A stretch of DNA of 64,000 bases from Candidatus Manganitrophaceae bacterium (GTDB lineage Bacteria; Nitrospirota; Nitrospiria; SBBL01; JAADHI01): NCBI GenBank assembly GCA_013151935.1, contig JAADHI010000124.1:41718-105717 (forward strand), read 5' to 3'. The position numbers and the translations under genes were made by a program. How positions within the stretch are numbered: the first letter of the stretch is position 1; each line of letters starts with the position of its first letter. Shown here piece by piece: positions 3,876 to 47,633 of the stretch. The notes beneath the pieces are model-generated. The model saw only the letters and a program-made list of their open reading frames with translations, searched no databases and was not told the DNA's origin.

Positions 3876-4850
3876 CTAAAGCCGTACTCTGGGATCAACC
3901 CAGGTATAGGAAATATCCGTAAGAATCAGCCCTAGAATGTATAGCACTGAGCCCAAAAACACCATCGCGCGGACGATACTGAAATCTTGGCTGTTAATCG
4001 CATCAATCGTGTAACTGCCCAGACCCGGGATGCTGAAGAAGGATTCGGTGATGAGACTGCCCATAAAAAGCAGAGGGATGACGACAACCACGCCTGTTAA
4101 AATGGGGACGAGGGCGTTTCGCAGGACGTGGGAGAAAAGTACACTCAGCTCTGAAAGCCCTTTGGCGCGTGCGGTACGGACATAGTCTTTTCCAATTTCT
4201 TCGAGGAAGATGCTGCGATACCAGCGCGTACCGCTGCCGATGCCACCCACCAATCCCACAATAACGGGCAGGATTAAAAACTTGACGGCATCCAAACCCG
4301 TGTCGTAACCCGAAATGGGGACAAGTCGAAACATTTTACTAAATAAAAATTGGCCACCAATGATGTAAAAAAGCGATGAAATAGACATCATCGCCACAGC
4401 AATGATGACGGCCCAAGTATCAATGTAAGTTGCGCGAAAAAAAGCAATGATCATGGCAACGGTAATATTAACGAAGAGCCCGACGATCAAACTGGGGATG
4501 GCAATCGCCAGACTCGGCCACATGCGCTCTCGAATATCCGAGCCGATGTTTCGCCCATCGTCCGCAAAACCAAAATCAAAGACAAAAAGTCGCAGGGATT
4601 TTTCAAAAAATACCGTTTGAGTTAGTTTTCCAAAGCCTTCAGCTTGGGCATTAAATGCGATGGGTTTGTCATAACCGTGATCGGCCTTCCATTTTTCGAT
4701 GGCTTCGGGTGTGACACGTTTCATACCCAACTGAAGCCGCGCCATATCATCCGGGGTATTCACCACAAAAAAGAGCAGAAAAGTCAATAAATTGACTCCG
4801 ATTAAAATTGGAATGGCATACAAACTGCGACGAATAATGTAGCTGATCAC
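3876..4850 (-). CDS. ABC transporter permease, OppB/DppB type
   Basis: 324 aa and multi-TM. The EAA-loop region is YVRTARAKGLSELSVLFSHVLRNALVP. It lies directly downstream of the family-5 binding protein, 1 nt apart. Confidence 0.8.
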   Translation of the reverse strand: MISYIIRRSLYAIPILIGVNLLTFLLFFVVNTPDDMARLQLGMKRVTPEAIEKWKADHGYDKPIAFNAQAEGFGKLTQTVFFEKSLRLFVFDFGFADDGRNIGSDIRERMWPSLAIAIPSLIVGLFVNITVAMIIAFFRATYIDTWAVIIAVAMMSISSLFYIIGGQFLFSKMFRLVPISGYDTGLDAVKFLILPVIVGLVGGIGSGTRWYRSIFLEEIGKDYVRTARAKGLSELSVLFSHVLRNALVPILTGVVVVIPLLFMGSLITESFFSIPGLGSYTIDAINSQDFSIVRAMVFLGSVLYILGLILTDISYTWVDPRVRL

Positions 4851-4851
4851 T

Positions 4852-6990
4852 TCAAATGCCTCGCTCTTTTTTTCGATAGCTCATGACGGCTGGCACAGTT
4901 CCGGCAACAAAGAGGGCCACGATCACCGCAAGCGGCCACCACCGGGGTTTGTTCCATTCTGCCCGTTTTTTGCTGCGTAAAAGGGAATCGACTTTTTTGT
5001 ATTTCAGGGTATTATTAGCCATGAGGTTTGGTTTAACATTGCCCTGCCAGGCATGATACAAGGCAAACTGTTTGGGATGAAACCCGGAAACCCAGGGCAC
5101 GTCATGCCGGAAGATTTCGACCATTTCGTTGATGATTTTTTGTCGTCTGGGGCTATTTCCCATATTTTTCATTTCTTCAAATAGGGCATCAAAACGTGGA
5201 TTTGCGTAGTTTGCGGCATTTTCCCCATTTTTACCCGCTTTAGCATTGGGGCCGTAGAGCAAAAATAAAAAGTTTTCGGGATCGGGATAATCCGCATTCC
5301 AACCCCATTGAAACATTTGCGCCGAACCTTTCAACATTTTGTCTTGAAAACGATTGTAGTCGGTATTTCTAACCACCAGCTGAATCTGAAGTTTTTCAAA
5401 CTGCTTCCGCATCCAATCAAAATTCGCCTTCACCGCAGGCCCTGTACCCGTTGTATCAAAGTGAATAATCAGTGGTTTTCCCGTTTTTTTATCTCGGCCA
5501 TTGGGATAACCCGCCTCGGCCAAAAGTTTTCGAGCCACAGCAATGGACTTTCGTTTTGCCTTGCCATCAACCCAATCATAAACATAGGGGTTGATCCCTG
5601 CTTCCCCTTCGAGATATCCGAAGATGCCGGGGGGCAGCGGCCCCTGCATGGCGATGCCCCGGCCATTGCGAAAAATCGCAATGGATTCTTCCTGATCAAT
5701 GGCAATGCCGATGGCTTGACGGATCAGTCGTGCAGACACTGAATCTCCACCGACAACAGAGTCAAGCATATTAAAGGCCATATAAAAAGTTGTGGTTGCT
5801 GTGCTGGTCAAAAGACGAATGCCCTGTGCTTTCATCTCATCGGTTAAGGCGGCGTCCCCCCCCGCACTCACTTGCACCGCTTGATCAAAACTATCAGAAG
5901 AAATCCCGGAGCCATCATAAAATCCCTGTAAAAACTTGTTCCAAATGGGAATACCTTCTTTTTCTAAACTAAAAATGATCTTTTCGATAAAGGGCAATGT
6001 CGCACCTGCGTCATCTAAAAGCCCTGCTTCTGCATCTCCGGGCATGCCTTCTGTCGGATAGACTTCTGGGTGGAAATTTGGATTTTTTTCAAGCACCATT
6101 TGTCGATTGGGGTTATTGACCGTCAGCATATAAGGTCCTGTTCCAACGGGGTACCAATCGAGTGTGATATTTTTTTCGATCAAACCCGGCTGCGCATAAA
6201 AACGATCTGCTTCATGGGGCAAAGGGGCAAAAAAAGGCATGGCCAGCCAATAAAGAAATTGAGGATACTTGCCTTTGACTTTGATGCGATAGGTGTAGCG
6301 GTCAATGACTTCTACCCCTTCAAGGGGAAATTCCCTCAAATCCAAAAACCCTTTGTCCTCAGAAGCGGATTTTTTGAGGGTTTTGCCCAGAGCCCCTAAA
6401 CCCACAATGTACTGGCTCATCAAACCAAAAATAGGAGAATGGATCTTCGGATGCGCCAGCCGTTTAATCTGATAAACATAGTCTTCGGCAATGAGTTCAC
6501 GACTACCGGTTTCCTTAAAATCAGAAAGACGCCTGATGTCATCCAAGTCAATCGCATCAAGTTTATGATAACGAGAAAGCCCCGCTGCCGTTTTTGCAAA
6601 AGCCGGGTGAGGTTGATATTGAATCCCCGGCGTAATTTGAATTTCGTAAAGACTCCAAGCCACGTCCGAAACAGGGCCATCTTCTTCAATGACCATACCT
6701 GAGGCATCCAAATAAACCGGGCTGGGCATCTTTTTTGCTGTTAAGGGAATGAGTTCGTAGGGACGTTTAAGATAATGGTATTGGAAAGGGGGTTCGTAAA
6801 TCTGGGCCGTAAAAGTTGCTTCATTGGACGCGTAAGATCTGGCTGGATCAAGGTGTTTGGGACGTTCGCTAAATGAGCTGTAAAGCACATTCAGACTGTT
6901 TTCTTCTGGAGGATAGGGATTATTGAGCGCCGTATTTGAACACCCCACAAACAAAAGAAAAACAAGGATAAGTCTAGAAAAGACTATCAC
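4852..6990 (-). CDS. family-5 (peptide/nickel type) ABC substrate-binding lipoprotein with C-terminal TM helix
   Basis: Large SBP_bac_5-like ORF. The track start at 7104 overlaps secG. I prefer GTG at 6990, which gives VIVFSRLILVFLLFVGCS, a signal peptide with a lipobox Cys. The C-terminus WWPLAVIVALFVAGTVPAVMSY is hydrophobic. Confidence 0.65.
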   Translation of the reverse strand: MIVFSRLILVFLLFVGCSNTALNNPYPPEENSLNVLYSSFSERPKHLDPARSYASNEATFTAQIYEPPFQYHYLKRPYELIPLTAKKMPSPVYLDASGMVIEEDGPVSDVAWSLYEIQITPGIQYQPHPAFAKTAAGLSRYHKLDAIDLDDIRRLSDFKETGSRELIAEDYVYQIKRLAHPKIHSPIFGLMSQYIVGLGALGKTLKKSASEDKGFLDLREFPLEGVEVIDRYTYRIKVKGKYPQFLYWLAMPFFAPLPHEADRFYAQPGLIEKNITLDWYPVGTGPYMLTVNNPNRQMVLEKNPNFHPEVYPTEGMPGDAEAGLLDDAGATLPFIEKIIFSLEKEGIPIWNKFLQGFYDGSGISSDSFDQAVQVSAGGDAALTDEMKAQGIRLLTSTATTTFYMAFNMLDSVVGGDSVSARLIRQAIGIAIDQEESIAIFRNGRGIAMQGPLPPGIFGYLEGEAGINPYVYDWVDGKAKRKSIAVARKLLAEAGYPNGRDKKTGKPLIIHFDTTGTGPAVKANFDWMRKQFEKLQIQLVVRNTDYNRFQDKMLKGSAQMFQWGWNADYPDPENFLFLLYGPNAKAGKNGENAANYANPRFDALFEEMKNMGNSPRRQKIINEMVEIFRHDVPWVSGFHPKQFALYHAWQGNVKPNLMANNTLKYKKVDSLLRSKKRAEWNKPRWWPLAVIVALFVAGTVPAVMSYRKKERGI

Positions 6991-24504: not shown

Positions 24505-24621
24505 TCAGTGGGGCGCAAAAACATCGGTGGTAGGTGAAAATACGAGGACCATTTGGATGATGTAGTAACCGACAAAAAGCATGGCGGCAACAAAAAAAAG
24601 TTGTTTCAAGAATGCTTTCAT
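24505..24621 (-). CDS. possible 38-aa small membrane protein (below the ORF-track cutoff)
   Basis: ATG preceded by AAAGAGG-N5. Translation MKAFLKQLFFVAAMLFVGYYIIQMVLVFSPTTDVFAPH* has one TM helix. It ends 27 nt before the LPP20-like gene. Confidence 0.3.
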   Translation of the reverse strand: MKAFLKQLFFVAAMLFVGYYIIQMVLVFSPTTDVFAPH

Positions 24622-24649
24622 ACAAACCTCTTTGCCCTTAGAAATTTAC

Positions 24650-24679
24650 ATTTTATTCAATTGGAGTAGATGATGTCAA
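24650..24679 (-). promoter_or_regulatory. sigma-70-like promoter for the small ORF and LPP20-like gene
   Basis: The minus strand reads TTGACA-N18-TAAAAT (-35 at 24674-24679, -10 at 24650-24655), immediately after the left arm of repeat copy A. Confidence 0.35.
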
Positions 24680-24683
24680 ATAT

Positions 24684-24845
24684 AAGAAACCTCTGATTAA
24701 GTTTTGGGTCATTTTTTTAGGAGATAAAGTTTCCTGATTCAAGACGCAAATTTCAGGGAATAGCCCGCTATTTCCAAAATTTGAAACGCAGAAGCGGGGA
24801 ATTTTTGCCCTCAAAAAACAAGTCATCACTTAATCAGAGTTTCCT
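24684..24845. repeat. intergenic inverted-arm element, copy A (about 162 bp)
   Basis: The left arm AGAAACCTCTGATTAAGT (24685-24702) and right arm ACTTAATCAGAGTTTCCT (24828-24845) are inverted repeats with a one-base bulge. The left arm is 18/18 identical to 45998-46015. The interior shares ordered blocks with copy B: GATTCrAGA, GGGnAATArCCCG, AACGC-N4-GCG, GCC..AAAAA and CATnACTTrATCAGAGTTT. Confidence 0.7.
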
Positions 24846-24865
24846 AAACACAAAGAACCTGAGAT

Positions 24866-26113
24866 TTATGGCATCTGGTCTTCTAGCATTTGTATCCTCA
24901 AATCTACGATATGGATTTCCTGAGATCCACCTGTTTTTTCAAAATAAACACGGGCCTTTTTTAAATGCGTAAGCGCTTTAGAAAATTCACCTTTCTTTTC
25001 GTGGATCGTCCCGATGGTGCCTTCAATTTCCGCAAGTTTCTTCAGGTTTTTTAAAGGGATCTGAATATAAAGGGCTTCTTCCGCCGCATGCAAAGCGTCT
25101 GAGTATTGGCCTTGATCACGATAGAGTAAACTTAAATTCAACCATGTTTTTGAGCGATTACGACTATCCTGTAATTTCTGATACCCCACCAAGGCCTTCA
25201 ATTGCAGCTTGAGTGCGGTCTCAAAGTCACCGAGGTCTTTGTAAACAAAACTTAAAGCCGAGCGTAGACCCGCCTCGCTCAGCGGATCATCGAGCTTTTT
25301 GTATATTTTGAGCGCTTTTTGGTAATAATCTCGTGCGAGCGGCAAGCGCTGATCGCGATAATACAAACTTGCCAGTTGGCCCAGCTGTCTGGCCTCAAGC
25401 CAAGGGATGGGAACCGTCTCTGCAATTTCCAGGGCTTCGATATGGGCAGCCGCTCCTTTGTCAGCAGAACCTAATTTAAAATAAAAGGCCCCCAATTGCG
25501 ACAAGGACAGCCCTTGTGCATGCCAATCATCTGTTTCTCGGTTGAGTTCGAGCGCCTTTTCGAGCCATTGCACCGCTTCTTTCCAGCGCTTGGACATGGA
25601 ATAAACGAGCGCAAAATTTGCCATTGCCGCCGACTTTATCTTTGGGTGATCCGCCTTCTGAAAGGCCAAATGAAAAGCAGATATCGCTTGGGATTCTTGA
25701 CCCAAGATGAGCAGACTATTGCCATATAAGATCAAAATGGCCCCACTTTGTTGCTCTACAGGAAGCAGATCAATTTCCTTTACGATATTCTGAAAATGGT
25801 TTTTTCGATAATGGGCATAAAGTGTCGAATAATGCAGAGACCTTCGCTCCGCTTCTGGCAAATGGAGCTCCCGCTTAAAAGCACTCAGATTGAGGTCTTT
25901 TAGGGCTTGCGCGGAAATTGCCGGGGAAGGTTCTGAAAAGACAGGACGACTGACAAGCGTAGAGAAGATCAGAAAAACAAAGAAAAACGCAAGCTTCCCT
26001 ACAGAGTTCAAAATGGAGGACTTAAAAAAAGGAGAAGATACAAAATAAAAAAAGGGGGCGATTCTAAAAAAACCAGCCGATGGGATTAAGCTATTTTTTT
26101 GTAATAAACCCAA
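24866..26113 (-). CDS. TPR-repeat protein with N-terminal signal/anchor
   Basis: Multiple 34-aa TPR-like units (for example AISAFHLAFQK, AVQWLEKALEL, ARDYYQKALKIYKK, ALKLQLKALVGYQK). Hydrophobic N-terminus. The TTG start is uncertain, and an internal TTG before NSVGKLAFFFVF is also possible. Confidence 0.65.
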   Translation of the reverse strand: MGLLQKNSLIPSAGFFRIAPFFYFVSSPFFKSSILNSVGKLAFFFVFLIFSTLVSRPVFSEPSPAISAQALKDLNLSAFKRELHLPEAERRSLHYSTLYAHYRKNHFQNIVKEIDLLPVEQQSGAILILYGNSLLILGQESQAISAFHLAFQKADHPKIKSAAMANFALVYSMSKRWKEAVQWLEKALELNRETDDWHAQGLSLSQLGAFYFKLGSADKGAAAHIEALEIAETVPIPWLEARQLGQLASLYYRDQRLPLARDYYQKALKIYKKLDDPLSEAGLRSALSFVYKDLGDFETALKLQLKALVGYQKLQDSRNRSKTWLNLSLLYRDQGQYSDALHAAEEALYIQIPLKNLKKLAEIEGTIGTIHEKKGEFSKALTHLKKARVYFEKTGGSQEIHIVDLRIQMLEDQMP

Positions 26114-29500: not shown

Positions 29501-30025
29501 AGCGGGGTAATCCTCCTTTGATTCAATGACAACCTCGAGGGTCTCTGCTTTCTTCGAAGAAACACTGCCCGATGGCAAAGTTTTCCCCTTCTGGGTCTGT
29601 GCCAGCTTGCGACTTACAAGACCTTGATTCCGAATCAAAACAGCCTTAAGTGCCTGAAGACGATTCTCATCCTGATCGGGCTGACTAAACCACTTGGGCG
29701 AAATCAGGTTCAGCAGTGACAACAGGACACAAATCACATGACGGCACTCTTGTTGCGACTGCTCCAATTGGCAGTCGCAACAAGAGTGCAAGTCTTTAGC
29801 CCTCACAGAAAGGGTCACCGTGTAAGATTTTGCTCCAGCAAGGGAGGCTTTTAAGAGGCTTTGGTTTTCCTGCCAAAGAATGGATTGCAGCCGCTCGGCC
29901 TTATAATCTGCAAAGCCCAGAAGAAAAACAGACTTTGAGGTCATTTGATACAGGCTGCTGGGCTGAAGTATCTTTAAAAGGGACAGCAGGTCTGGATCAA
30001 GAGGTGTATTGACAACTTTCTCCAT
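26510..30025 (-). CDS. SNF2-family helicase with N-terminal SWIM zinc finger
   Basis: SWIM-like CCDCQ...ECRHVICVL. SNF2_N: LRPYQKEGLDWL...LADDMGLGKTLQAIALL and DEAQTVKN. Helicase_C: LLSLKAGGQGLNLTKASYVFHLDPWWNPAVENQASDRVHRIGQ. 1171 aa. Confidence 0.85.
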   Translation of the reverse strand: MEKVVNTPLDPDLLSLLKILQPSSLYQMTSKSVFLLGFADYKAERLQSILWQENQSLLKASLAGAKSYTVTLSVRAKDLHSCCDCQLEQSQQECRHVICVLLSLLNLISPKWFSQPDQDENRLQALKAVLIRNQGLVSRKLAQTQKGKTLPSGSVSSKKAETLEVVIESKEDYPAIFLRRGGRVIDTLSGLPDGLSVFTYRYHTDQSLRDGFFEHLKKNASRYPLIFEGRLSQIRLRWDPQLMYQSKTELNVLGDSVAVQACIFLGDVPCENTERFWDFVVDLKTRTLGRVRDRAGWGLFDHLDRLFRPSSLSPFERLDEIEDQRLSGREWIVPNAHFKVPLKTFQSIQLNITQKILKDTLAHLVLKVEGQFTAAQSAKHEHRLTIDSRQGETTSLRTECRIGDSVGVTTGHTFGFFTDIHTQGLPGALRAIKRLTVLYQTFFLLFKITEREEALKVIKKALSNGDFTEYAVKRSARELLKRCFSSLQDEDARLHFSAGNWFIAPNEKEKEVLLYKIPFECFGAKVFREMTRYHEIRLPTNQLDAQLSHLHVQCQSVGITLYYQGKPVQTVKWDFAFDARKPSGIDWFELRPEIRSDGVLVSDAVWQKLLQGRGIVEDKGTIQIVDANAQKIIDALALIYHQPKNAPREKREIVQVPRMQLLDWVMLRKEGVDIRLSEADERLIKHLTQLEQIEQIETPPNLLATLRPYQKEGLDWLAFLYQHRFGAILADDMGLGKTLQAIALLAALKEGCIPAQSGSEKGPHLIVVPPTLLFNWEQEISRFYPDLSFYPYFGKDRRTRFEGYDIVLTTYAIVRRDIVKLKEIPFHVIIFDEAQTVKNIYAETTGAVRQLKGMFNLVMSGTPLENHLGEYYSLIDLCLPGLLGEYDQFKSQLKLSDSPLLTVLIRRTRPFVLRRMKEAVLHDLPPKIETNIYLSLTGEQKTLYQQTVSLISSQINRAYRDKTTGQAKIIALTAIMKLRQLCVSPRLISLEFKTKSAHSPKITFLIEQLQALHAEGHSALVFSQFTRALDLLEEALAPGKLPYSRLDGSTPTLQRKALVRSFQEELTPSVFLLSLKAGGQGLNLTKASYVFHLDPWWNPAVENQASDRVHRIGQKQNVSITRILMRHTIEEKMMDLKKKKSALYDAVMGGEEQKGQAYALSKTDFDFLLDT

Positions 30026-36570: not shown

Positions 36571-36725
36571 AATATAAAATACAAACAACATCATCTTGTG
36601 GAATCTCTGAATATAAGCTGTGGAGAAGATGTGTAAGAAAAAAGGACATTTCCCTCTAAGTCACGAATTTATTTAGGTTTTGCTTTGTGGAAAAACAGGA
36701 AAAATACTCTGACGAAATAAATCAA

Positions 36726-37679
36726 CTACTGCATGCGAAAATAGTAGAGCGTTGTCTGCTGCCCCGTACGCCGAACCACGGCCGAGACGGTCTTGAAAGT
36801 GTCATTAACCTGACCCGTGGCTCTGAGGGTGAAAAACTGGCTGTCTTTTCTCTGCCAATCCCCGATACGGTTGATCACATCGGTGGATAAGAGGTTTCTA
36901 AACTCTGAACGCCAGGTGGTCGCCTCATCAAAGGGACGTTTTTCGATAATGCGGCGCGCCACAGACTCATCCAAATCAAGATCAAAACTCTGCAAAACCA
37001 AAGAATCTGCCGTATTGATATTGATCAAACCCTCCCCATAAACCGTCAGATAGGGAGAGATCTGAGTATAGATTGCATTCGTAATCCCGCGAACCATGTA
37101 CAACTCCTCTAAAGTCTGCATGGCTCCATTTCTCGCAGCATAACCCGGATTACCGGCTTGATAACTTGGACTTTCCGCACCATAAGGCATCGGAACATCA
37201 TCCGGGTCGATCCAATCCACAATCGCATCCGTCAAATCAGGATTGATCTCTAGCAGCTCAAACAAGCGCATGAGCTGGTCTTGCCTTTTTTGAATCACCT
37301 TGCCCGTACTCTGATTGACCAACTTATTGATATTGATCTTGCGTTCTTCGTCTACAATAAATCCACTCAATAGACCATCCCCCAGGGGATATTCTGGAAT
37401 GGCTGCGGCCCAGAACTCATCCACGCCATCATAAGCTGCGCTGTTTTTTGCATCATCTTTTAGCAGGGCTTCACCCGCAGAAATCCCGGAACGGGCAAGA
37501 TATTCGGCCTTTAAATCATCTCTAAAATTACCCGCAGCACGCAGATCCGCTCGAATCTGATAATCAGCCTCAAAAATAATGATCACCAAGAGCACAACGA
37601 TCAAAAGACTCAAAAGCAGCGCAAAACCATTTTGGTTTCGCAAGCCTGTGCCGGGATATTTAGGAAGCAACCTTTTCAT
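36726..37679 (-). CDS. gspK: type II secretion system minor pseudopilin GspK
   Basis: N-terminal NGFALLLSLLIVVLLVIIIF. The HhH-type segment is TLEELYMVRGIT...ININTADSLVLQSF...ARRIIEKRPF. It overlaps gspM by 20 nt. Confidence 0.8.
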   Translation of the reverse strand: MKRLLPKYPGTGLRNQNGFALLLSLLIVVLLVIIIFEADYQIRADLRAAGNFRDDLKAEYLARSGISAGEALLKDDAKNSAAYDGVDEFWAAAIPEYPLGDGLLSGFIVDEERKININKLVNQSTGKVIQKRQDQLMRLFELLEINPDLTDAIVDWIDPDDVPMPYGAESPSYQAGNPGYAARNGAMQTLEELYMVRGITNAIYTQISPYLTVYGEGLININTADSLVLQSFDLDLDESVARRIIEKRPFDEATTWRSEFRNLLSTDVINRIGDWQRKDSQFFTLRATGQVNDTFKTVSAVVRRTGQQTTLYYFRMQ

Positions 37680-44246: not shown

Positions 44247-45953
44247 TTAAATCTTCTCTTCTTGCGTCACACGGAGCACTTCTTCCGTCGTCGTCAAACC
44301 GGAAATCACTCGTCTTGCCCCATCTTCTCGTAAGCTATTCATGCCCTTTGAAAGTGCCGCCGCTTTAATCTGCGTCGAGTCTGCCTTTGAAAGAATCATG
44401 TTTCGAATTTCATCGTCGAGCAATAAAATTTCATAAATACCAGAACGTCCCTTAAAACCCGTATTCAAACACTCGGAACAGCCAGGGCCTTTAAAAAATG
44501 AATGTTTGGAATCCGGTGGTAGGCCCATTTTTTCATATTCTTCCGCGCTGGGCTGATAGGCCTTACGACACTCTTGGCAAATTCTTCGGACCAAACGCTG
44601 GGCAATCATCGCGACGACAGAAGAAGAGACCAAGAAAGGCTCAATACCCATATCCAGTAAACGTGTGACCGCACCCGCAGAGTCATTGGTGTGTAGTGTC
44701 GAAAAAACCAAGTGCCCGGTAAGGGAGGCCTGAATGGCAATGGTTGCGGTTTCGCTGTCTCTGATCTCTCCAATCATGATGACATCGGGATCCTGACGTA
44801 AAATAGAACGCAAACCACTCGCAAAGGTAAGCCCTATTTTTGAATTGACTTGAATCTGCCCAATGCCCTGCAACTGATATTCGATGGGGTCTTCAATGGT
44901 GAGGATATTTTTATCCGGAGAATTGATACGACTCAAAGCAGAATAAAGGGTTGTGGTTTTCCCACTCCCGGTCGGCCCGGTGACCAGAATAATCCCGTGG
45001 GCCAAATCAGTTAGATTTTCCATGGACTTTAAATCTTTGTCTGAGAGGCCGATCTGAGTCAAATCCAGTGACTCACTTGATTTTTCTAAAATCCGCAAAA
45101 CCAAACGCTCGCCATGCGCTGTGGGAATATCAGAAACACGGATGTCAATCTCTCGCCCACCAATTCTGAGGCTAATTCGGCCATCCTGAGGCAGACGTTT
45201 TTCGGCAATATTCATGCCTGCCATAATCTTAACACGGGAGATAAGGGCGGACTGAAGACGCTTTGGCGAGGTCAAGACATTGTAGAGTACGCCATCCACA
45301 CGGTAGCGCACCTTCACTTCGCGCTCAAAAGGCTCAAAGTGAATATCGGAGGCCCGTTGCTGTACGGCCTTAAAAAAGATGGAATTGACCAGTAATATCA
45401 TTGGCGCTTCGTCATCTGTATCCAAGAGGTCTTCCGGTTCGCCGATTTCCTCCGCCAACACACTCAAATTATCCCCTGAAAAGTCGGAAATCGCATCTTC
45501 CGGGCTGTCCGTTGCCAACTCATAAACCTGATGAATACAACGCATAATTTCTTCAGAAGGCACAATCACAAGATCCATCTGGCTTTTGAGCAGGATAAAA
45601 AAGTCATCCAGTGCACGTAAATTCAGGGGTTTTGCTGTCGCACAAACGATACGTTTACCCTTACGTTTGATCGGCAAGAACTGATGACGTTTTGCAAAAG
45701 AAAGTGGAATTTTTTCAGTCAGTGCGGGGTCGATTTCGTTAATGTCCAGCTCAGTCTGATAAGGCAGGTTCCACTGTTCCGAAAGCGCTTCGAGTAAAGT
45801 CCCCTCTTTTAAGAGTTTAAGACGCAACAAAATATCACCAATCGAGCCGCCTTCTTCCTTTTGCAGTTCGAGGGCTTCTACAATTTGCTCCGCGGTGATC
45901 GCACCTTTCGCAATAAATATTTCGCCAATGAGGGGGCGTTTCTGATGTATCAA
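44247..45953 (-). CDS. gspE: type II secretion system ATPase GspE
   Basis: Walker A GPTGSGKTTT. Asp and His boxes are present, as is the tetracysteine motif CQECRK...CSEC. TTG start preceded by AGAGG. Confidence 0.9.
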   Translation of the reverse strand: MIHQKRPLIGEIFIAKGAITAEQIVEALELQKEEGGSIGDILLRLKLLKEGTLLEALSEQWNLPYQTELDINEIDPALTEKIPLSFAKRHQFLPIKRKGKRIVCATAKPLNLRALDDFFILLKSQMDLVIVPSEEIMRCIHQVYELATDSPEDAISDFSGDNLSVLAEEIGEPEDLLDTDDEAPMILLVNSIFFKAVQQRASDIHFEPFEREVKVRYRVDGVLYNVLTSPKRLQSALISRVKIMAGMNIAEKRLPQDGRISLRIGGREIDIRVSDIPTAHGERLVLRILEKSSESLDLTQIGLSDKDLKSMENLTDLAHGIILVTGPTGSGKTTTLYSALSRINSPDKNILTIEDPIEYQLQGIGQIQVNSKIGLTFASGLRSILRQDPDVIMIGEIRDSETATIAIQASLTGHLVFSTLHTNDSAGAVTRLLDMGIEPFLVSSSVVAMIAQRLVRRICQECRKAYQPSAEEYEKMGLPPDSKHSFFKGPGCSECLNTGFKGRSGIYEILLLDDEIRNMILSKADSTQIKAAALSKGMNSLREDGARRVISGLTTTEEVLRVTQEEKI

Positions 45954-45997
45954 AGTAACCTCTAAGGGGTGTGAAAAACCTGTGACAAAACGGGCTT

Positions 45998-46176
45998 AGA
46001 AACCTCTGATTAAGTCTGGATTGGATGTTCCAAGAGAAACTTTTGGTCGATTCGAGATAAAAATCACGGGCAATAACCCGTTTGATTCAAAACTAGCACC
46101 AATAGTAAACGCTTTCGCGACGCAGAAATGGGACATAATGGCCTTAAAAACCGATTCATAACTTGATCAGAGTTTG
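45998..46176. repeat. intergenic inverted-arm element, copy B (about 179 bp) between gspD and gspE
   Basis: Left arm AGAAACCTCTGATTAAGT (45998-46015, identical to copy A). Right arm ACTTGATCAGAGTTTG (46161-46176) ends 2 nt from the gspD stop codon. The interior blocks are colinear with copy A. Confidence 0.7.
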
Positions 46177-46178
46177 TT

Positions 46179-47633
46179 TTACTGAGGGAGATCAATCATT
46201 TCACTAAACAGTGCTCCCTCGCCCTCCTCTCGTAAGTGGGACAAATGTTCTTCCATGAAACGTACCGATCCTTGCATTTTTCTTGCTCGAATTTCCTCTA
46301 GCTCTTCGTCATTGAGTACAATATGCGGTGTGAGAAAGATCATTAAATTGGTTTTTTCAATGCGATTCGATTTAAAATGAAATAACCATCCAATCAGAGG
46401 AATATCTCCTAATAAAGGGATTTTTCGATCCACTGCGATGAGGTTATCCTTGATGAGTCCACCGATGACAACGGTCTGCCCATTTGCAACAATGACGGTC
46501 GTACTGGCCGAGCGTTTATTCGTCGTCGGTCCCAGGTTTTCGGCACCCGCCGTGACCGCAGTCGCCACCACAGAAGAAATTTCTTGATAGACATCTAACT
46601 GCACACGGTTGTCATCAAGCACATCAGGCGTGAGCCTCAAAATAATACCGACATCTTTTCGCTCAATGGTCGTTTGAACATTGCCTCCCACGCTTTGGCT
46701 TTGCGCTCCCGGAAAAGGGACATTCTGCGCAACGACAATTTCAGCTTTCTGCTTGTCCGTCGTCAAAATCTGTGGGGTCGATAATACGTTTACGTCAGAG
46801 GAAGATTTCAAGGCCCTGAGTGCCGCAACAATATTGACCGCACCGATACTTAGGCCATCAACCCCCGCAATTGCTCCGAGACCTGAGACATCAACCGTGC
46901 TGTTAAAGCCACCCAGCACGGTTGCATCATTGCCCGAGGTATAGCCAAAAGCCGCCCCCAATTCCGTACCCAGCTCCCTAAATTTATCCGCCGATAACTC
47001 CAACACGACCGCCTCAACATAAACCTGCCGTCGTCTTTGATCCAGCTCTTCAATCACACCCGTCAAAATGGCATAGTCTGATTTTGTTGCCGTGATGACA
47101 AGGCTATTTGTCTCTTTATCGGTGAGTATCTGGACTTGACCCTGTAGCCCTTTCGAGTTGTTTTTTTTCTTTTTACCACGCCCGGCAGGTTTTGCAACCA
47201 AACCCCGTAAGACTTTTGCTATTTCTTCAGACTTCATGTTTTTAAGACGATAAACATAAACCTCACGATCCAGAGATACTTCGGCAAAAGGCCGGATCAG
47301 ATAGACCAATCCACTTTCCACGACCGTAAGTCCTTTCAATTCCAATACGGAAAGAAAGACCTCATAAACCCGATCCAGAGGGATTTTACTCGGAGAAATG
47401 ATGGAGATTTTACCTCTAACTTTTTCATCGATCACAAAATTTTTACCGGTGAGCTCACTGATGAGTCTGACCAGAACAGGAAGATCCACTTCACTGAAAT
47501 CAAGCGTGACTTCTTTTGTCGCTGCTTTTTTTTTCGAGGCTTTTTGCCCCACCGAAGTCCCTGGTAAGGCCAATGTCAGGACGACCAAAAAAATAACCCA
47601 GTACAGTCCTTGCCTTTGTAAATTTCTACGCAT
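46179..47633 (-). CDS. gspD: type II secretion system secretin GspD (short form)
   Basis: Signal peptide, then an N0-like segment (VTLDFSEVDLPVLVRLISELTGKNFVID). Ring-building domains follow, then a secretin core (NKRSASTTVIVANGQTVVIGGLI...KIPLLGDIPLIGWLF). 484 aa. Confidence 0.85.
   Translation of the reverse strand: MRRNLQRQGLYWVIFLVVLTLALPGTSVGQKASKKKAATKEVTLDFSEVDLPVLVRLISELTGKNFVIDEKVRGKISIISPSKIPLDRVYEVFLSVLELKGLTVVESGLVYLIRPFAEVSLDREVYVYRLKNMKSEEIAKVLRGLVAKPAGRGKKKKNNSKGLQGQVQILTDKETNSLVITATKSDYAILTGVIEELDQRRRQVYVEAVVLELSADKFRELGTELGAAFGYTSGNDATVLGGFNSTVDVSGLGAIAGVDGLSIGAVNIVAALRALKSSSDVNVLSTPQILTTDKQKAEIVVAQNVPFPGAQSQSVGGNVQTTIERKDVGIILRLTPDVLDDNRVQLDVYQEISSVVATAVTAGAENLGPTTNKRSASTTVIVANGQTVVIGGLIKDNLIAVDRKIPLLGDIPLIGWLFHFKSNRIEKTNLMIFLTPHIVLNDEELEEIRARKMQGSVRFMEEHLSHLREEGEGALFSEMIDLPQ

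Follow-up and report, generated by a model that had tools for sequence, protein, structure and literature searches.

Two intergenic repeats in a Nitrospirota genome are probably old copies of a MITE with IS5-type ends

The stretch of DNA analysed here (64 kb, referred to as the window) contains two related intergenic elements, which we designate copy A and copy B. Copy A (24686-24844, 159 bp from repeat to repeat) is located 17-21 nt after the stop codon of a TPR gene (24866-26113, minus strand). Downstream it adjoins a strongly conserved promoter-like sequence, TTGACA-N18-TAAAAT (24679-24650, minus strand, 11 of 12 matches), whose -35 box lies only 5 nt from the element and which precedes a conserved 38-aa ORF and then a gene for an LPP20-like lipoprotein. 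Copy B (45999-46177, 179 bp) lies between gspD (46179-47633, minus strand) and gspE (44247-45953, minus strand) within the gspC-D-E-F... operon for type II secretion. The GspD protein of the window is 100% identical to GXO96_09840 (Nitrospirae bacterium), and its next relatives belong to Nitrospiria and Manganitrophaceae. Short ORFs overlap both copies and differ between the two, and a tblastn search of the window with four IS5 transposases retrieved no IS5-type transposase, in agreement with the earlier note, which had seen none. The hydrophobic 38-aa ORF (MKAFLKQLFFVAAMLFVGYYIIQMVLVFSPTTDVFAPH, about 24506-24622, minus strand) is nearly invariant down to a lipoprotein identity of 63% and is conserved jointly with the promoter and the ribosome-binding site; judged from this conservation, it is probably a real gene for a small membrane protein.

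The 18-mer AGAAACCTCTGATTAAGT, whose exact recurrence at 24685-24702 and 45998-46015 was the central observation of the earlier note, was found again at both positions and, with two mismatches, in inverted orientation at 24828-24845. The window thereby holds three matches versus 0.04 expected, and none of 100 shuffles reached three. The inverted partner arms are likewise real, namely the match at 24828-24845 in copy A and ACTTGATCAGAGTTTGT at 46161-46177 in copy B. Their reported asymmetry (AAACC on one side, AAAC with a gap on the other) holds as a difference, which a substitution without any indel (GAAACCTCTG versus GGAAACTCTG) describes better than a gap. The terminal inverted repeats of the element comprise 17 bp of the form G(G/A)AACCTCTGATTAAGT, with the family consensus GGAACCTCTGATTAAGT. 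The repeat begins with GAAACC. The A before it is part of the target duplication, and the element thus starts one base later than had been stated. In copy A, the low arm (24686-24702, GAAACCTCTGATTAAGT) and the high arm (24828-24844, ACTTAATCAGAGTTTCC; reverse complement GGAAACTCTGATTAAGT) each match the consensus in 16 of 17 positions. The low arm of copy B (45999-46015), again GAAACCTCTGATTAAGT, also reaches 16 of 17, and its decayed high arm (46161-46177, ACTTGATCAGAGTTTGT) reaches 13 of 17.

Contrary to the earlier statement that no target-site duplication is visible, both copies are flanked by 4-bp duplications. They are imperfect, matching in three of four bases, and represent the TTTA and CTTA types, which are not strictly YTAR. 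The high-side duplication of copy A reads TAAA (TTTA on the minus strand; 24845-24848) and begins 17 nt after the TPR stop codon; its low-side equivalent (24681-24685) is a degenerate TATAA with one extra base in the window, where TAAA is expected. For copy B, alignment with empty sites places the low-side duplication CTTA (TAAG on the minus strand) at 45995-45998. The high-side duplication TTTA (TAAA on the minus strand; 46178-46181) is one change away from TAAG and includes the stop codon of gspD.

The two copies align end to end except for a 21-nt insertion in copy B, with a mean column identity of 76% in an alignment that takes in short flanks. The interior of copy A (24703-24827, 125 nt) is a self-pairing, full-length foldback with a central GGAATAG/CTATTCC hairpin, and that of copy B (46016-46160, 145 nt) contains the insertion. 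An interior profile of subfamily g1, which is defined below, matches copy A at 24705-24826 (E=5e-25) and copy B at 46016-46159 (E=3e-20). The ordered interior blocks listed in the earlier note are real and are kept in relatives from other metagenomes (L075, L081, L085, L086 and L047); they are thus features of the family, and the element is directional as claimed. Neither a profile built from both copies nor a scan for arm pairs detected a third copy in the window, and a candidate arm pair at 36600-36898 was judged to be a chance match. A gene for a SNF2-family helicase contains, at 29744-29789, an inverted repeat of 19 nt without mismatches, the arms of which (GCACTCTTGTTGCGACTGC / GCAGTCGCAACAAGAGTGC) are 8 nt apart.

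Comparison with related genomes revealed presence/absence polymorphism at the orthologous sites of both copies, the 4-bp target sequence being single in the empty sites. The spacer between gspD and gspE comprises 225 nt in the window versus 40 nt in three relatives whose GspD proteins are 85%, 77% and 76% identical. The site of copy B is empty at five loci (L067 to L071), three of which (L067, L069 and L071) read CAGTAAG or CAGTAGT at the insertion point, and in the alignment it is precisely the junction of ...CAG TAA with G(T/C)C... that the extra DNA interrupts. Without the element the site reads CAGTAAGTCG, with it CAG-TAAA-[ACAAACTCTG...CAGAGGTTTC]-TAAG-CCCG. The break occurs exactly at TAAG, which identifies this tetranucleotide including the gspD stop codon as the target; it was duplicated, and one of the two copies later changed by one base. 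Judging from this alignment of filled and empty sites, the gspD stop TAA(G) served as the apparent target of copy B, and the duplication regenerated the stop. The gspD gene, the 40-nt spacer and the ribosome-binding site of gspE are left intact. Copy B is also present, with one base different, in a near-identical genome from another metagenome (L084, UOGF01000008.1). Inside copy B, a terminator-like hairpin (ACGGGTTATTGCCCGT followed by GATTTTTATC; 46066-46081, minus strand) shares the transcribed strand of gspD and gspE; an active terminator at this point would have a polar effect on gspE-M.

The site of copy A is empty in the 78% relative (L087, L088 and L089), which contains a single TTTA in the context CTGG-TTTA-TTTGAC. 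A 95% relative (L090) carries at this site a different, 37-nt element, GGAGGCTCTAATCAAcccagACTTAATTAGAGCCTCC, with a perfect TTTA on both sides. A 3-bp TWA duplication was considered for the window copies and rejected, since the perfect TTTA of this relative and the empty sites favour 4 bp.

The arms of the 37-nt element are identical to each other and differ from the window arms at three shared positions. A 63% relative (L091) has a partial copy in opposite orientation at this position in front of the conserved promoter. Three lineages, namely the window and the 95% and 63% relatives, accordingly each carry a different element with IS5-type ends at the TTTA that precedes the promoter by 5 nt (window 24650-24690; L090 2564-2600; L091 4766-4830; empty in L087 at about 5580-5600). 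This occupation results either from a hot spot that was hit repeatedly or from an ancient insertion that has since undergone turnover. Upstream of this promoter, the 63% relative has a gene for an ABC transporter in place of the TPR gene, and the stop codon TAA of the transporter gene lies inside the terminal repeat of the element (GAT TAA; 4766-4784), indicating that an insertion or a rearrangement at the element supplied the last codons and the stop of this gene.

An exact scan for the 18-mer across 185,579 species-representative genomes retrieved 66 loci in 48 genomes versus about 17 loci expected by chance. According to the record titles, the hosts belong to Chloroflexota, Gamma-, Beta- and Alphaproteobacteria, Acidobacteriota, Nitrospinota and Actinomycetota, and the 48 genomes with the same ends are labelled under at least six bacterial phyla. 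One further match stems from a MAG that is labelled, by its title only, as a Thermoplasmatales archaeon, and two matches in Bacteroidota look like chance occurrences in a conserved gene. Multiple occurrences in single genomes comprise eight contig ends in a single Chloroflexi MAG, five copies in OZ244905.1 and four in a Dehalococcoidia MAG; genomes other than that of the window hold three to eight copies of elements with the same ends, and the window holds two in 64 kb. A gapped scan of metagenome contigs for both arms yielded 12 loci, seven of which have interiors related to the window copies or to their sister group. A blastn search of a plasmid collection with the consensus of either subfamily gave no match, viral contigs gave one match that apparently arose by chance within a coding sequence, and a full-text search of the literature for the arm sequences retrieved unrelated primer matches only. 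Judged by this literature search and the plasmid collection, the MITE family with IS5-type ends is apparently undescribed.

TTAA or CTAA directly precedes GAAACC in 43 of the 66 loci. Among the 47 paired elements, i.e. those with a recognisable inverted partner 25-420 bp away, 24 exhibit perfect 4-bp duplications, comprising TTAA, CTAA, CTAG and one TTCA. TTAA (34), CTAA (19) and CTAG (7) occur among the 94 flanks of the family, which corresponds to the YTAR consensus of the 4-bp target duplications made by IS5 (PMC5009759). Eight elements are flanked on both sides by CTAA, which is not palindromic and therefore documents a direct duplication of 4 bp. The TA duplication of IS630/mariner-like elements is thereby excluded, because the first flanking base (C or T) is repeated on both sides (CTAA...CTAA).

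Interior-only profiles allowed us to define two subfamilies. The first (g1) comprises both window copies together with L084, L075, L081, L085, L086, L047 and L031, and its hosts have a GC content of 40-46% and include a MAG labelled 'Proteobacteria UBA2770'; the second (g2) comprises L015, L026, L043, L056, L058, L079, L082 and L083. The placement after stop codons that the earlier note had described is seen for both window copies and for several relatives, in which the gap between the element and the upstream ORF ranges from -21 to +25 nt. Two members of g2 (L043 and L058) have only housekeeping genes and no transposase beside the 18-mer, which identifies these copies as MITEs as well. In total, the family ranges from 'micro' elements of 25 nt to forms of 300 bp, plus a 917-bp form with a passenger ORF.

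In the 'micro' elements (25-42 nt) there is nothing but two terminal repeats, which abut or overlap. Such elements were found in L014, L022, L023 (969-1000), L030, L046, L060, L061 and L037, several of them with matching 4-bp duplications (CTCA, CTTA, TTAA). Longer foldbacks may have collapsed into these forms, or they may be mobile units of minimal size. The 917-bp element (L062, in reverse-complement orientation, starting at the 18-mer) has the same ends and a perfect TTAA duplication and lacks a transposase, the place of which is taken by an ORF of 147 aa that has CxxC motifs and for which membrane segments are predicted. The element may represent a passenger-carrying derivative. An apparent element of 2.3 kb in L014 was rejected, since it encloses host genes (PlsX/FabH-like) and thus represents two separate ends.

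The terminal repeats belong to the same type as those of IS5 and of insertion sequences of the IS5 subgroup such as ISXfu1 (GGAA-NN-T-NN-GA-NN-AAGT), and ends of the form GG(A)A...GA..AAG(T) are common to elements encoding an NF033581-type DDE transposase. One example is an intact IS of 1.29 kb (L023) with the ends GGAACCTCTATTAATTC / GGAACCTCTATAAATAG and TTAA on both sides, whose transposase of 347 aa scores 279.6 bits against NCBIfam NF033581 (IS5 family; cut-off 140); a 27-nt element that contains the 18-mer and is flanked by a CTCA duplication occurs in the same genome. Another example is a decayed IS of 1415 bp (L035) with the ends GGAAGCTCAGATTAAAT / GGAAGCTCTGATTAAGA and with transposase fragments that match the same NCBIfam family. 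ISXfu1 (end GGAAACTCTGAACAAT) and an IS of Rhodanobacter (end GGATGCTCTGATTTAT), both annotated as IS5-family members, are flanked by CTAA duplications. Compared with the family consensus, the end of E. coli IS5 (GGAAGGTGCGAAYAAG) matches in 11 of 17 positions, that of ISXfu1 in 12 and GGAAGCTCTGATTAAGA of the decayed IS in 15, and the end of the intact IS is identical in the first nine of nine positions. None of the recovered insertion sequences ends exactly in the consensus GGAACCTCTGATTAAGT; the closest are the decayed one with 15 of 17 and the intact one with 14 of 17 and one gap. The window elements differ from IS5 in lacking a transposase gene and in their length of 159-179 bp versus 1.2-1.4 kb, and their TTTA and CTTA duplications depart from the YTAR of IS5, which the family-wide duplications follow. 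IS5-family elements with matching ends were thus found in other genomes (L023, intact; L035, decayed), and none is located within the 64-kb window of the organism investigated here.

In the decayed IS, a long tandem array of the octamer GGAGTATT lies just inside the right end (about 2570-2770 of the extracted segment, reverse complement). In the Chloroflexi MAG VGNW01, eight contig ends (L001, L024, L029, L032, L036, L039, L053 and L055) fall into one sequence that is led by the 18-mer; they stop 90-127 nt inside this shared sequence, the interior beyond being unassembled. Contig ends inside one and the same sequence are the usual sign of a repeat that breaks the assembly. The pattern is suggestive of a full-length IS that bears precisely this end and is present in multiple copies, and no other sequence is as good a candidate for an autonomous element with an identical arm as that of VGNW01.

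The IS5-type ends bear on an alternative scenario, in which two full-length insertion sequences each lost their transposase gene by internal deletion on the spot. Both the arms, which are IS5-family ends, and the existence of a decayed full-length copy elsewhere (L035) would fit such a scenario. It is contradicted by the ordered interior that copies A and B share with each other and with elements of 155-161 bp in unrelated contigs (40-46% GC) and in the UBA2770 MAG, since independent deletions would not yield the same interior. Moreover, no transposase-derived sequence is left in the elements, and many members have intact duplications at short length. We consider this scenario very improbable. 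The earlier note had regarded a clean match to a known IS end as proof of ordinary IS remnants; the IS5-type ends exist, the conclusion does not follow, because a family of 155-180 bp moved as short units.

The same ends, together with the duplications, weigh against a palindrome of the REP/BIME type, which would be handled by a RAYT (TnpA-REP) tyrosine transposase. REP/BIME sequences are imperfect palindromes of 20-40 nt with a GTAG head, lack terminal repeats and duplications and are associated with RAYT proteins. The intergenic, palindromic nature of the window elements and their location after stop codons resemble them. However, the elements are 160-180 bp long without a GTAG-headed unit of 20-40 nt, they possess 17-bp terminal inverted repeats, 4-bp direct duplications and clean empty sites, and their ends match those of DDE-type IS5 elements. 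An origin of this kind can practically be dismissed.

The interior of the element is structurally conspicuous. The g1 element folds as a whole into one hairpin of 56 pairs. Its 17-pair terminal helix never exhibits a double change, which indicates a constraint on the sequence itself and fits a protein-binding site, whereas 16 pairs of the interior helices have double changes. The earlier note had proposed a search for compensatory changes, and this analysis indeed documents covariation of the g1 interior: 27 double-change cells were counted versus 9.4±2.6 in shuffles, none of 500 shuffles reached 27, and slid controls gave 4-15. A count by hand gave 25 G·U and 20 A·C cells among the mismatches of the foldback, which are thus balanced; since there is no excess of G·U, neither strand is favoured, which argues against a strand-specific RNA. 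More simply, the foldback may thus be regarded as a DNA-level palindrome with strand-neutral maintenance. Its maintenance could be due to a requirement of transposition or to template-switch correction, as compensatory changes in quasi-palindromes can result from template-switch repair without selection.

The foldback could alternatively be read as a cis-acting structured RNA, i.e. a hairpin of roughly 75 bp that would be transcribed with the upstream gene and either be processed by an RNase III-type enzyme or function as stabiliser or attenuator; at the gspD-gspE junction, such a hairpin could determine how strongly the secretin is expressed relative to the ATPase. The compensatory changes that keep the full-length hairpin in g1 are compatible with this, and the fold of copy A is much more stable than that of shuffles (-47.9 kcal/mol, z=-4.5); by contrast, the fold of copy B is no better than shuffles (z=-1.2). 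Also in favour are the terminator-like hairpin of copy B on the transcribed strand and the cleavage of the terminal repeats of Correia elements by RNase III (PMC10969869). A further such point is that all six g1 elements between co-directional genes (copies A and B, L075, L081, L085 and L047) face the same way with respect to transcription (two-sided p about 0.03 in this small sample). An opposite tendency in the sister subfamily g2 (five of six, in a small sample and with an uncertain relative orientation of g1 and g2) counts against an RNA. Rfam 15, which the earlier note had proposed to search, recovered in the whole window at the gathering score only a tRNA-Leu and no match at the element, and a permissive scan of 24600-24900 returned noise of at most 17.6 bits, all far below the thresholds. 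The balance of G·U and A·C cells and the capacity of template-switch repair to generate compensatory changes without selection also count against an RNA, and the element is absent from close relatives at both sites. The earlier idea of an RNA derived from a 3'UTR or processing site has thus gained no specific support, given the blank Rfam result, the balanced mismatches and a terminal helix that does not covary, and we regard it as improbable.

A related proposal is that environmental bacteria of several phyla have co-opted g1 as a portable cis-regulatory module. It is based on the compensatory foldback, the uniform orientation of the six elements and the recurrence after stop codons and just upstream of a promoter. 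If correct, the element would act as an RNA processing or attenuation hairpin inside operons (gspD-gspE) or as a structural DNA element upstream of promoters. We give this proposal little credence.

The best explanation, to which we assign a probability of about 90%, is that both elements are old, probably immobile copies of one MITE whose 17-bp repeats are of the kind recognised by DDE transposases of the IS5 subgroup. They are short (159 and 179 bp), have no coding capacity for a transposase and combine terminal inverted repeats with a 4-bp duplication. This reading joins the observed repeat, its arms, duplications and empty sites, the family distribution and the IS5-type ends with a mobilisation in trans by an IS5-family transposase that we infer. 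The transposase, supplied by a full-length IS5-type element, would bind both ends, excise or copy the short element and integrate it into an A/T-rich target of 4 bp, for which YTAR is the canonical sequence; the duplication would arise when the staggered cut at the YTAR-like site is repaired. Every YTAR contains TAA or TAG, which makes stop codons natural targets and explains the location of the copies directly after genes. The duplication would restore the stop codon, so that the genes survive the insertion. The imperfect arms and duplications and the identity of roughly three-quarters between copies A and B are indicative of old copies that are probably no longer mobile. Several observations speak against this explanation: the 64-kb window has no IS5-type transposase and only two copies, the duplications of these copies are imperfect and non-canonical, one arm of copy B is decayed, none of the recovered insertion sequences has exactly the consensus end, and the interior shows no visible derivation from the ends of either IS (L023, L035).

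The earlier note had compared the element to MITE, Correia and REP sequences. The first comparison stands in the light of the repeats, duplications, empty sites and IS5-type ends, the other two do not. Correia elements have a 26-bp repeat, a TA duplication and an IHF site; their repeat is unrelated to that of the window elements, and the TA duplication and the IHF site are absent here as well. These neisserial MITEs of about 100-200 bp have the potential to form long hairpins, are often co-transcribed with their neighbours and also occur in operons (PMC10969869). Closer counterparts are the IS5-family-derived MITEs BrickBuilt and MITEPgRS of P. gingivalis and ATR of N. meningitidis, which originated from ISNme1 (PMC4596501). 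Like the window family, they are short and non-coding and have terminal repeats that match the IS5 family without any transposase remnant (PMC4596501). They differ by their GAGACC... ends of a different IS5 subgroup, their variable or short duplications and their confinement to one genus, whereas the window family is characterised by GGAACCTCTGATTAAGT ends, YTAR duplications and an occurrence in at least six bacterial phyla. Chunjie of Geobacter uraniireducens is a MITE of 178-235 bp with 21-bp repeats and 9-bp direct repeats, compared with 17-bp repeats and 4-bp duplications here (PMC3184786). Its presence within an operon that remains unbroken resembles the situation of copy B (PMC3184786). 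In terms of sequence, the window elements thus appear to represent a known kind of feature, the MITE, in a family whose ends differ from those of BrickBuilt, MITEPgRS, ATR, Chunjie and Correia.

For annotation, this means that both intergenic stretches would be MITE insertions and not candidate sRNA genes or host regulatory sites. The family is spread over Nitrospirota, Chloroflexota, Acidobacteriota, Nitrospinota, Actinomycetota and several proteobacterial classes. Its preference for YTAR targets would turn stop codons into landing pads, allowing insertions to enter operons while leaving the genes unbroken. The pattern of presence and absence moreover provides a strain-level marker for these hydrothermal lineages of Nitrospirota.
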